From Escherichia coli (lineage in GTDB: Bacteria; Pseudomonadota; Gammaproteobacteria; Enterobacterales; Enterobacteriaceae), in the NCBI RefSeq assembly GCF_044647545.1, contig NZ_CP172818.1: DNA of 64,000 nt; one strand, 5' to 3'. The notes beneath the pieces were generated by a model that ran no database searches, was not told the origin of the DNA, and worked only from the letters and a program-made list of their open reading frames with translations. Each line of letters begins with the position of its first letter. The first letter of the stretch is position 1. Shown one piece after another: positions 59,453-64,000 of the stretch. The translations under genes were made by a program, and so were the position numbers.

Positions 59453-59529
59453 CGCGGGGTGGAGCAGCCTGGTAGCTCGTCGGGCTCATAACCCGAAGGT
59501 CGTCGGTTCAAATCCGGCCCCCGCAACCA
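59453..59529 (+). tRNA. metV: initiator tRNA-fMet (CAU), copy 3
   Basis: Identical 77-nt sequence to copy 1. Confidence 0.97.
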
Positions 59530-62500
59530 ATTATCTGAATACCCAAGTTTTCACAATCGTTTTTTTTATTTAAATCTTTCCTGAATCACAAAGTTTTTTA
59601 TCTCCCTTCCTCGAATAATCAATTACACTAAATTATCCCTTTCTGTATACTCAATCCCCGATATCCTTGTAATGATATTTTCATTACATCTAAATTCCCA
59701 ACGTTCAACTAAACACATCCACCCCAAAACATTTCTTCTTCAATCACCTAATAAACCCCTCATCCACAACTCCCCCCATTGATGATCAACACATCCATCA
59801 TCACAAATATTTATACTAATAAATCTCCACTCAAAAAAACAAAAAACAATGATGAATCGACTCATAAAATATCTTCAATTATACAAATGAATCCACTTTT
59901 CACAACTAATCTTTTTTCAAAACTAAAACTCAACATCAAAACAATAACCTTCCCATTTTTCCAATATCGTACCAACACAATACGTTTACCTTTAACCCAC
60001 CATCACTCACCCATACCATTTTCATCCATGATACACCGATATTTTCATCCCGAAATAATCCAATGATAAATTCCCAACCATTTGAATTAATCCCAACCAT
60101 TATTACAATAATACTATTCCTCCACGAAATCAATATTTCTATCCCCTCCCGAATCTCGATATTATTTTCACACCAACACAATAACTTCCCCTATAACAAT
60201 CTTCCCAACCCAAATAATCTCTAATCATATTCTATTTAACAATCCCACATTATTCTTAATAATAAATTAAAATTATTCTCTCTACAACCCAAAACACTCT
60301 AAAACACTACCAAACATTTTTATACACACTCACTTCAAAAACCACCCCAAAAATACTTACTGTATTTATATTTTAAATTATGAATTTCTTTAACCATCAC
60401 CCCTGATGATAAACCGAAACACACATAAATTTTTTCAATTCAAATCAACCCACCCATCACCAACAACCAAACAACATCCACACATATCTAAACTAAATTA
60501 TCCCCTCACTTTACGATTTCAACAATAAATCACAACTTACCAACATATATACTAAAAAATCAAATAATTACCCATTTTTTTCAACACATTCCCAATTTCC
60601 CTCTCACACTTTTGAAATAAAATAACAACATCTCTTCCCACATCCAATCCTGTACCCTCCTACCTAACAAAAAACGAATCCTACTCAAAATCCGATTTTC
60701 CAATAAACCGACTTACCAACACCAATAAAAACAACTTTTCCCTACAAATTTATACTTTAATTAAAACGAATCAAAATATCAATAACTCTCTACTTAATTC
60801 TTACATAAAATTTTAATAATATATCTTATTCATTTTTATTCTCCCTGATTAATATTTTTAATTACACTCACAAACCGTAACCCCATATATAATTTTTCTC
60901 ACCCACCATTCAAGAATACCCTCCCCCTCCGTTCCATAACATCCCCCCATAACCATTTCCTTCATGAATTAACACTTAAAATTCATCAAAAGATAACCAA
61001 TACAAACAATCTACCAAAAAAACAACATCACTCCTACATCAATTCAATATTTTATTCAATACTAATTGAATTAACAATATTCTTTAATGATTTACATCCC
61101 AATCTAACAATAAACAATTATATTCATACTATGGATTTACAAAACTATACGATATCTTCTAACTTATGATTAAAATTACTCATTAAATCATAAGATCTTA
61201 TCAAATTAAATTCATATCATTATACTACTACTTTTTCTTTTTTTATTTTAACCGATGTAACTACTCATTAAAAACAAAATCACTATGATTTCATCTAACA
61301 TAACAAATTATCCTTAACCACATTTTATATTCTTCTTCCACCAACTTCCTCGTTATGAGATTACATAATAACACCATCTCTTTTATCTTAAACAAATCCC
61401 ATTATACTACCCCCCTCATTTTTTATAATCAAAACTTCAAATATTCCCTATTTTTTACATCAAAAACATTAAACATTAAAAACAAATATTATCACACGAT
61501 CAATAATCTATTCTTTTCAATAATACATCACATCTATATTATCCATTCATTTTATCTTTTATATTTTATAAACCATTTACTACCATTCAATATTCACATT
61601 CAAACAGTACCTAAAATCTTTCCAAGTTTTCTTAATCCCTACACACTTCTTATCAAATCCATATCTAAATAAAATGTAATACATCTTTTACACCAAATCT
61701 CCCCAAAATCCCATTTACAATATTTCCTTCAAACAGTATTAAAAACATCCATCACATATCCATTATTATCCATATCCACCAACATGACTTTATACCGATA
61801 ATATTTATATTTTATCAATTTAATATAATTCCCCACTCTTTTTATTCTCCTCAATCAACCCATATCGATTTTAAACTAAAGATACCAATTATCCAGATTT
61901 AATATTCTCTTTACCACAATCCTTAACATCTCTCTCTTCACTCTATTTATCAACGTATATCCCTATACTATCCTCATACTTCACTACAATACTCTTCACC
62001 ACTCATCAGTTAAATTTAAAATACAACAACACAAAGTAATAAATAAAAAATACCACTTCGACACACACCTATTCAACTTTCTTCCACCAAACCCAAACTA
62101 ATAAATTGAATCAACCCATAAATCCCATCTTCACCCCATAACAAACACGAATCCATTCATAAATCATAAACAAACACATACTACAAATAAAAAAAATCCA
62201 ACTCCTACCCCCAATAATGATTAACACCCCAAATAACAATCTTTATACTTTTCTTTTACATACATCGATACACCACCCACCACCAACATACTAATCATCA
62301 TTTCTTTCCATTTTCCCCCAAACCACAATACCATTCTCTACACCCATAAAATCATCCATAATACTCTCCCCCAATCACACCTAAACCGACGTAAACAAAA
62401 ATCACCAGATTTTAACCAAAAAACTCACTCCAACTCATAAAAAATAACCGAACAACCGAATATATCATCCAATGACATGAAAATTAAAAACCCAATAAAA

Positions 62501-63641
62501 GAATGATCAACCAAACCATCATCACAATCATTAATAACACAACCTATAAAAACTAATATCTAACTAAATTAACGTCTTTTTAACACCATAATAACCCACA
62601 ACAATTCCTCTAAACCTTATTTAACTGATCCCAAATATTTATCGACATTTACACACCAATAATCTCTTTTAAATAAAATTCTCCCAGACACCCATAAAAC
62701 AATAAAGAAAAACATATTTATCCTCTTTTTTTTAATAACCAAGAATTTACCAAACAAACATAATAACAAACAAACAAACCAAAACAATAAACAATATTTT
62801 TATTATGAAACCAAAATAATTAATCCATATCATCATCTAAACATCCACCTACATCACACATACAACAACAAGAAATAAACCTCATCTAAAAAAAATCCAC
62901 TTTCTTTTATTTCATATAAATTTATATATAAAATTAATACTACGAATAAAATATATTTTCTCTAAATACATATTTAAAACAACAATACTCAATTTATGAA
63001 TTAAAATTCTTTCTCAAAAATCATAATCACAATATTCTTTTTTTTATACATAAAACAAAAAAAATAATCATCATAACTTAAATTAAATAATCTCACTTAT
63101 AAAACCGATAACTTTATTTTTTAATAATAAAAAGCATAACAATGAATTCAATTATTTAAAACAAATAAAATTCATCAAATTAAACTAAATTATAATAACA
63201 CAATATTTACAATTTATCAAAAAAAATTATTATTTTACCAAAAAATAAAACAAAAAACAAAAATTTAATTTTTCAAATACACAAACAACAACAAAACAAC
63301 AAATACATAATAATATAACGGGTGTTTTTTTGTTTCTTGTCTCCCATAAAAGAGCCAGCCATCTCAGACGACATTCCATATTTTTTTTTAACCACCCACC
63401 CAGAAATATAACCTCTCCATTCACACTTACACAATTATTTCATACTTATATCAATACTCCCAAAAAAAACAACACTCAAATAATAATACTCAAACAATAA
63501 CATACAAAATAACAACAAACAAACGAATTTTTAATTAAAAACTTTATTTTCAACGACATTCAAAATCCACATCATCACAAAACATCTAATATTCATAAAT
63601 TTATCTATCAACGAAATATAAATTCATAATAAATAAAAACA
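59530..63641. other. ~4.1 kb compositionally anomalous, non-coding block (G-depleted on + strand), identity unknown
   Basis: Sampled 60-nt lines contain 0-4 G against roughly equal A, C and T; almost no ORFs on either strand; starts the base after the metV CCA and ends the base before the amiC stop codon. Confidence 0.9.
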
Positions 63642-64000
63642 TTATCCCCTTCTCGCCAGCGTCGCCCCATCGGCAAAATACGCTTTAATTCCCGCAAGAA
63701 TAGACTCCGCAACTTCCTGCTGGAAAGTCGCCGTTTTCAGTTTACGCTCTTCCTCAACGTTACTGATAAACGCCGTTTCGACCAGAATGGAGGGAATATC
63801 TGGTGCCTTTAGTACGGCAAACCCAGCCTGTTCAACTTGATTTTTATGCAGCTTGTTGATTTTACCGAGCTTATTCAGCACCGCTTTACCAAACTTAAGG
63901 CTGTCGGCAATGGTCAGCGACTGCACCATATCGAACATAGTGTGGTCGACATAGCGGTCACCGCTTTTGCTTACGCCACCAATCAAGTCCGAGGCGTTCT
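63642..64000 (-). CDS. amiC: N-acetylmuramoyl-L-alanine amidase, C-terminal part (5' end beyond window)
   Basis: Reverse-strand translation ...[52 protein letters not shown] (Amidase_3 C-terminus); position after metV matches amiC synteny. Confidence 0.85.

Follow-up and report, generated by a model that had tools for sequence, protein, structure and literature searches.

A guanine-poor block between metV and amiC in an Escherichia coli sequence record as a probable garbled copy of the resident carbohydrate islet

In Escherichia coli, the initiator tRNA gene metV is a known site of genomic islands. In other strains, the region downstream of metV contains PAI-CFT073-metV as well as a type VI secretion cluster (PMC2831201, PMC3032704). 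The gene set c3405-c3410 of PAI-CFT073-metV is described as "PTS system, maltose/glucose specific", PTS being the phosphotransferase system (PMC2831201). A five-gene carbohydrate islet also occurs between metV and amiC in E. coli genomes, and it is probably the c3405-c3410 module. Here we analyzed the metV-amiC locus in a stretch of 64,000 nt from E. coli (contig NZ_CP172818.1 of assembly GCF_044647545.1; this whole stretch is called the window). In the window, the + strand of the block between the two genes (59530-63627) contains 113 G in 4,098 nt (2.8%), against 24.4% G in the rest of the window. The comparison with near-identical genomes indicates that this block is not an insertion but the islet of the strain itself, from which about 1,450 bases are missing. 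Of the dropped bases, 60% are G, and this loss accounts for the odd composition.

The metV-amiC islet and its copy in the window

When the block was compared with 5,426 complete E. coli genomes by megablast, it matched 1,683 of them, always at the metV-amiC locus and with about 77% identity, and nothing else was matched. The natural islet at this locus consists of five genes, all on the minus strand, in the same order and orientation as the remnants in the window. According to NCBIfam, they encode a LicT/BglG-family antiterminator, a MalX-like maltose/glucose PTS IIBC protein, a PatB/MalY C-S lyase, a short KpsF/GutQ-type SIS isomerase, and a D-2-hydroxyacid (phosphoglycerate) dehydrogenase-family enzyme. 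In strain IMT16316 the interval between metV and amiC is 5,566 nt long (L002 1457-7022; NZ_CP023815.1 2943573-2949138). The islet-free allele, which we call K-12-type, has an intergenic sequence of 73 nt with the native terminators, and it was found in 2,121 of the 5,426 genomes, once in each. The homology between the two alleles ends at the A after the CCA of metV and restarts at the amiC stop codon.

The strain of the window is very close to IMT16316. At least a dozen genomes, IMT16316 among them, match the 24.5 kb on the left side of the block with 100% identity. Over positions 1-59529, the window and IMT16316 showed two differences only, one single-nucleotide polymorphism (SNP) and one 1-nt deletion, outside the array of clustered regularly interspaced short palindromic repeats (CRISPR) described below. 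In a global alignment with the IMT16316 islet, 4,082 of the 4,112 bases of the window's interval fell, in order, on identical islet bases. That is, the block is a subsequence of the isogenic islet allele to about 99%, and it is colinear with that allele over its whole length. We are therefore close to certain that the block derives from the resident islet. The first-pass annotation of the window, which was made from its letters alone, had described the anomalous DNA as an insertion, and this description has to be given up.

The block shares with the natural PTS islet its site, its borders, and the order and orientation of the genes, and about 99% of the kept bases agree with the allele of the near-identical strains. 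In contrast to that allele, the window has lost 1,484 of the 5,566 bases, all five reading frames and the islet terminator, and it has gained a 39-nt patch of K-12-type sequence. As a result of the loss, the interval is shortened from 5,566 to 4,112 nt, which is 74% of its original length; within it, the garbled islet at 59530-63627 measures 4,098 nt, against 5,552 nt in the natural allele.

Coordinate mapping on the alignment placed the remnants of the five genes on the minus strand, where tblastn detected scraps only. The remnant of the dehydrogenase-family gene, which is non-coding, lies at 59586-60323 and is reduced from 948 to 738 nt. It is followed by those of the SIS isomerase gene (60378-60833, 597 to 456 nt), the C-S lyase gene (60836-61752, 1176 to 917 nt), the PTS IIBC gene (61752-62910, 1581 to 1159 nt), and the antiterminator gene (62931-63453, 825 to 523 nt). 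The upstream intergenic and promoter region of the islet comes last (63453-63641, 258 to 189 nt), and the last detectable deletion stands just before 63628.

Base-specific loss across the block

The fate of the islet bases in the global alignment depended largely on the type of the base. A was kept at 1691 positions and deleted at 42 (2%), C was kept at 1004 and deleted at 230 (19%), and T was kept at 1280 and deleted at 321 (20%). G was kept at only 107 positions and deleted at 891 (89%). About 1,000 deletion events stand against about 20 substitutions in the block. The extra or substituted bases number about 30, of which about 20 are scattered changes from G to another base (about 2% of G) and 10 are clustered in one patch. 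The GC skew inside the block is -0.7 to -0.9, and the G-poor composition is confined to the block; no other part of the window is comparable.

Identical 7-mers of the islet had mixed fates, which rules out a deterministic rule such as the removal of a motif. The retention of G was without autocorrelation, and the surviving G residues were mostly in YGA contexts. The deletion rates were equal at codon positions 1, 2, and 3, and equal in the coding and the intergenic parts; the lack of dependence on codon phase rules out selection or a coding-aware editing. The reading frames of all five genes are destroyed, with 349 stop codons in the three frames of the gene strand and no open reading frame (ORF) longer than 105 amino acids in 59530-63627. 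The hairpin of the islet terminator, at the left border, is destroyed, with -1.7 kcal/mol left of -20.9 kcal/mol. Runs of one base were kept better than single bases: the retention of T was 0.78 for singletons and 0.95 for runs of 5 or more, and that of C was 0.82 and 1.00, respectively. These results demonstrate that the loss is stochastic, specific to the type of base, and blind to coding, and that it spares homopolymers.

The deletion rate of C and T was not constant along the block. It was about 0.1 over the first 3.5 kb, rose up to 0.59, and then became 0.23 exactly at the K-12-type patch. In the region 62300-63300, the loss of C and T climbs steadily from about 10% to about 60%, and just before the patch the written sequence consists of more than 50% A and is of low complexity.

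Our first guess from the skew was a G-to-A hypermutation or a bisulfite-like conversion. This is ruled out by the reduced length of the block relative to the islet and by the fate of its G residues, which were deleted, not converted. An origin from foreign AT-rich DNA is likewise ruled out by the homology to the resident islet.

We also considered a process in the living cell, that is, a targeted hypermutation of the coding strand, whether by a cytosine deaminase or coupled to transcription, or a rapid decay into pseudogenes. The asymmetry of the loss suits such a process, since what is lost as G reads as C on the coding (non-template) strand, and this holds for each of the five genes. The hypermutation caused by deaminases of the APOBEC/AID type or by T7-polymerase-deaminase mutators also resembles the block in its strong single-strand bias over a few kilobases. 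However, the mutation spectrum excludes a deaminase: deaminases produce C-to-T transitions and leave the length constant, whereas the block is characterized by deletions and shortening, with 8 G-to-A changes against 863-891 deletions of G (891 in the global alignment). Moreover, the spacers between the genes and the upstream region, which is not transcribed, are affected to the same degree. For a decay, the deletions are without matching substitutions and the flanks are undiverged; over the 59.5 kb of flank, with the CRISPR array set aside, only two differences were seen, which leaves no time for it. No known mechanism makes about 1,000 separate deletions confined to 5.6 kb. We regard the probability of hypermutation or decay as negligible, and the same slight chance is given to an as yet undescribed process in vivo that would excise guanines (coding-strand cytosines) and some pyrimidines one by one from a 5.6-kb accessory segment and spare the flanks. 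With about 1,000 deletions in 5.6 kb, two differences in the flank, and almost no substitutions, a biological process is very unlikely, and we consider it highly probable that the garbling is non-biological.

Another origin of the loss could be the raw error of a sequencing platform, for example one poor long read or an unpolished stretch left in a polished assembly. Nearly all errors in the block are deletions, and their rate drifts along the block as it would along one read. The behavior at homopolymers is opposite, because T in runs of 5 or more was kept at 95% and single T at 78%. Nanopore, 454, Ion Torrent, and PacBio sequencing behave in the reverse manner. No known error profile comes near a loss of 89% of a single base on one strand, the borders lie exactly at the homology breakpoints of the islet, and read noise could create neither the K-12-type patch nor the mosaic spacers of the CRISPR array described below. 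We therefore judge this origin improbable. A more particular proposal, in which the order of retention A > C≈T > G would come from two-color chemistry or pulse brightness, conflicts with a 4-kb block that is independent of read length and with the rates of A and of C and T in the drift zone, and was rejected.

Borders of the block and K-12-type sequence at two loci

The first missing base at the left border is 2 nt past the 3' CCA of the metV tRNA. At the right border, the last detectable missing base is 15 nt ahead of the amiC stop codon (63642-63644), and this border can be placed only within 63628-63653, since the natural sequence is free of G there. The observation of the first-pass annotation that the anomaly spans the interval from the tRNA end to the amiC stop is thus supported. 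The coincidence with feature edges has a simple reason: the common natural polymorphism between the alleles of 73 and 5,566 nt has its borders there. In three-way alignments, the stretch next to the left border (59530-59545, + strand) fits the start of the K-12-type intergenic sequence (ATTATTGAACACC) about as well as the start of the islet, and its assignment is ambiguous.

The genes on both sides are intact. Three tRNA-fMet genes on the + strand occupy the positions of metZ (59233-59309; ARAGORN, and Rfam tRNA with 61.4 bits; identical to IMT16316), metW (59343-59419; ARAGORN and Rfam), and metV (59453-59529; ARAGORN and Rfam), and the 3' CCA of the last one forms the left edge of the anomaly. 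These three tRNAs are the only structured RNAs reported by Rfam, which found none in the block. The 3' end of amiC lies at 63642-64000 on the minus strand, and 63628-64000 matches IMT16316 exactly. As a side observation, islet strains differ in how many tandem initiator tRNA-Met genes they carry: there are 2 copies in ampC_0069 (L001 2734-2920) and 3 in the window (59233-59529) and in IMT16316.

The position directly 3' of a tRNA gene that is a known island site raised the possibility of a canonical genomic island brought in by an integrase. The block resembles tRNA-linked integrative islands such as PAI-CFT073-metV in this position, but differs from them in having no integrase, no duplicated tRNA 3' end, and no intact cargo. 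No ORF above 105 amino acids exists in 59530-63627 that could be an integrase, a tyrosine or serine recombinase, or a protein of the size of a transposase, and the five genes of the natural islet likewise include no recombinase gene. A repeat search over 59200-63900 detected only the tandem tRNA units and chance pairs of low complexity; the distal border lacked an attL/attR-like duplicate of the tRNA 3' end, and terminal inverted repeats were absent from the block borders. The same results speak against an insertion sequence or a transposon. On each of these absences (recombinase ORF, distal direct repeat, inverted repeats like those of insertion sequences) the first-pass annotation had been right. 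The sequence is that of the resident islet, without foreign cargo, and the natural islet itself is a replacement allele (73 vs 5,566 nt). None of the features that define a canonical island is present, and this reading is refuted. The first-pass annotation had also stated that the native terminators were replaced. The same holds for the natural islet allele of 1,683 genomes, and the replacement is not a trait specific to the window.

One of the two loci with K-12-type sequence is within the block. At 63316-63354 (+ strand), inside the remnant of the antiterminator gene, 37 of 39 positions in the three-way alignment are identical to the metV terminator and intergenic sequence of the islet-free K-12-type allele, and the G residues are kept. 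This patch differs from the islet sequence due at that place and is unique in the window. It is without the 5' arm of the hairpin and does not fold. Its position is where the islet shares TGTTTTTTTGTT and CATAAAA with the K-12-type terminator. No islet with the patch was found among the 5,426 complete genomes, in which the best match of the chimeric query was 90.9%, and a natural variant of the islet with such a patch was therefore rejected. Contrary to the earlier impression that the native intergenic bases are wholly absent, a 39-nt piece of the K-12-type terminator is present. The first-pass annotation had reasoned that intact native intergenic sequence flanking the block would speak against its view; such sequence does exist in part, but as a fragment inside the block and not beside it.

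The natural islet itself contains, at L002 6596-6639 within the coding sequence of the LicT-type antiterminator, a segment with about 70% identity over about 41 nt to the K-12-type metV terminator (TGTTTTTTTGTT ... CATAAAAAA). This likeness could be due to chance or to an old recombination scar, and the K-12-type patch of the window lies at this very place.

The other locus is the CRISPR array between queE and ygcE (15965-16367, + strand). In alignments to MG1655 and IMT16316, the array of the window has the K-12 architecture with 7 perfect repeats and 6 spacers, colinear with MG1655, whereas the array of IMT16316 has 24 repeats and 23 spacers. The spacers of the window are 31-38 nt long, which is abnormal. 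In the three-way alignment, 110 columns agreed with K-12 only, 36 agreed with the IMT16316 spacer of the same rank counted from the nearer edge, and 16 agreed with neither. The signal of the true strain, that is, of IMT16316, was highest at both edges of the array, and the first spacer follows that of the true strain. The spacers are base-level mosaics of the MG1655 and IMT16316 spacers. No complete E. coli genome matched positions 1-25000 of the window above 99.4%, and the CRISPR region was unmatched.

The exact borders at feature edges and the absence of mobile-element hallmarks would also fit real DNA, namely a synthetic G-depleted construct that was recombined between metV and amiC. The G-less cassettes used in transcription assays resemble the block in that one strand is nearly free of G. 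These cassettes are designed, are a few hundred nucleotides long, and are completely free of G. In contrast, the block is 4.1 kb long, contains 113 G, and derives, with much noise, from a native operon. A stochastic loss of bases from the resident operon that leaves 107 islet G residues in place, drifts in its rate, and is interrupted in the middle by half a terminator is implausible as a design, and the mosaic CRISPR array 43 kb away would stay unexplained. We thus consider a synthetic construct very improbable. The first-pass annotation had concluded that canonical integration does not fit and that the pattern looks artificial, with which we agree; its suggestion of a foreign segment put in or exchanged, or of an unprecedented mechanism, was mistaken.

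Origin of the garbling and its meaning

Taken together, the block is the metV-amiC carbohydrate islet of the strain, from which about 26% of the bases have been left out, and this loss was most probably introduced during the making of the sequence record, not in the cell. As the most likely route, we propose that the sequence was reconstructed with an islet-free K-12-type template, or by a process that had a prior of this kind. That is, data from an IMT16316-like strain were probably combined with the K-12-type template or prior, and the process would have failed where the two differ structurally. The window is correct in those parts of the true strain that have an equivalent in the template. 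The 5.6-kb islet and the CRISPR array of 23 spacers have none, and there the sequence is garbled and template sequence leaks in. If this account is right, the borders at the feature edges follow from it, since they are the homology breakpoints of the islet and no-islet alleles.

The template alleles do appear at two loci, and both are structurally different in the true strain. The block is similar to the artefacts of a reference-biased or template-guided consensus in that the garbling is found only at the two loci without a K-12-type counterpart, template sequence is present at both, and the borders are homology breakpoints. It differs from them in the G-specific loss on one strand. A resident islet garbled outside the cell along a template-type route is, with good confidence, the best overall explanation; for the part of it that names a K-12-type template or prior as the route, our confidence is moderate.

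The same observations may be explained by a deliberate in-silico corruption or by the output of a generative sequence model, in which a real window would have its variable regions re-rendered or degraded. The runaway drift of the deletions and its abrupt reset at a K-12 motif that looks memorized resemble autoregressive degeneration, and homopolymers are favored. The block gave 0 hits in exact 40-mer scans of the GTDB species representative genomes and the JGI metagenomes, no intact copy of it exists in the RefSeq complete E. coli genomes, and the translations of eight ORFs of the block are absent from a collection of 15 billion proteins. The first-pass annotation had proposed looking for the same block elsewhere; the G-poor block itself is in no collection searched, in contrast to the natural islet. 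That the CRISPR region is unmatched by any complete genome also suits a corruption or a model. On the other hand, the block tracks the strain-specific islet allele base for base and the first CRISPR spacer follows the true strain, and therefore the process had the true sequence or reads and did not work from a prior alone. We regard a corruption or a model output as possible, though doubtful. It is inseparable here from a template-guided pipeline, and both lead to the same verdict, namely that the block is not a real feature. The cause would in either case be computational or technical.

Several points weigh against an artefact of a template-guided reconstruction. To our knowledge, no standard tool or platform drops 89% of the G on one strand, and we know of no documented pipeline that gives a G-specific loss by deletion on one strand. 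We infer the technical origin from the exclusion of the biological ones. A segment of about 40 nt that is not of K-12 type (43782-43823) is rendered correctly, its G residues included, and sequence outside the template is therefore not affected in every case. The sole SNP against IMT16316 in the 59.5 kb outside the CRISPR array, at 7669, is G in the window, which is the K-12 allele, and A in IMT16316; it could be a natural difference between strains. Similarly, a single A is absent at 57880 in comparison with both IMT16316 and K-12. This site is the junction of an extra 145-nt segment of K-12, similar to a repetitive extragenic palindrome (REP), between tcdA and mltA. An error at the junction, which would support the template route, could explain the deletion, and so could natural variation, which would count among these points.

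The main value of these results is in quality control. The raw window mimics a spectacular insertion without hallmarks, and the comparison with near-identical genomes exposes a mangled copy of an ordinary and widespread islet. Because the CRISPR array is a second mangled locus, the record is unreliable where it departs from a K-12-type template. Any other "novel" finding from this window or its source, above all in accessory regions, calls for distrust as long as the reads are unchecked. Were the G-poor sequence real, a new mutational mechanism would be required, and the evidence is strongly against this. Almost certainly, the G-poor block between metV and amiC is not a real feature of this E. 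coli genome, and the locus holds neither an insertion nor a new mechanism.

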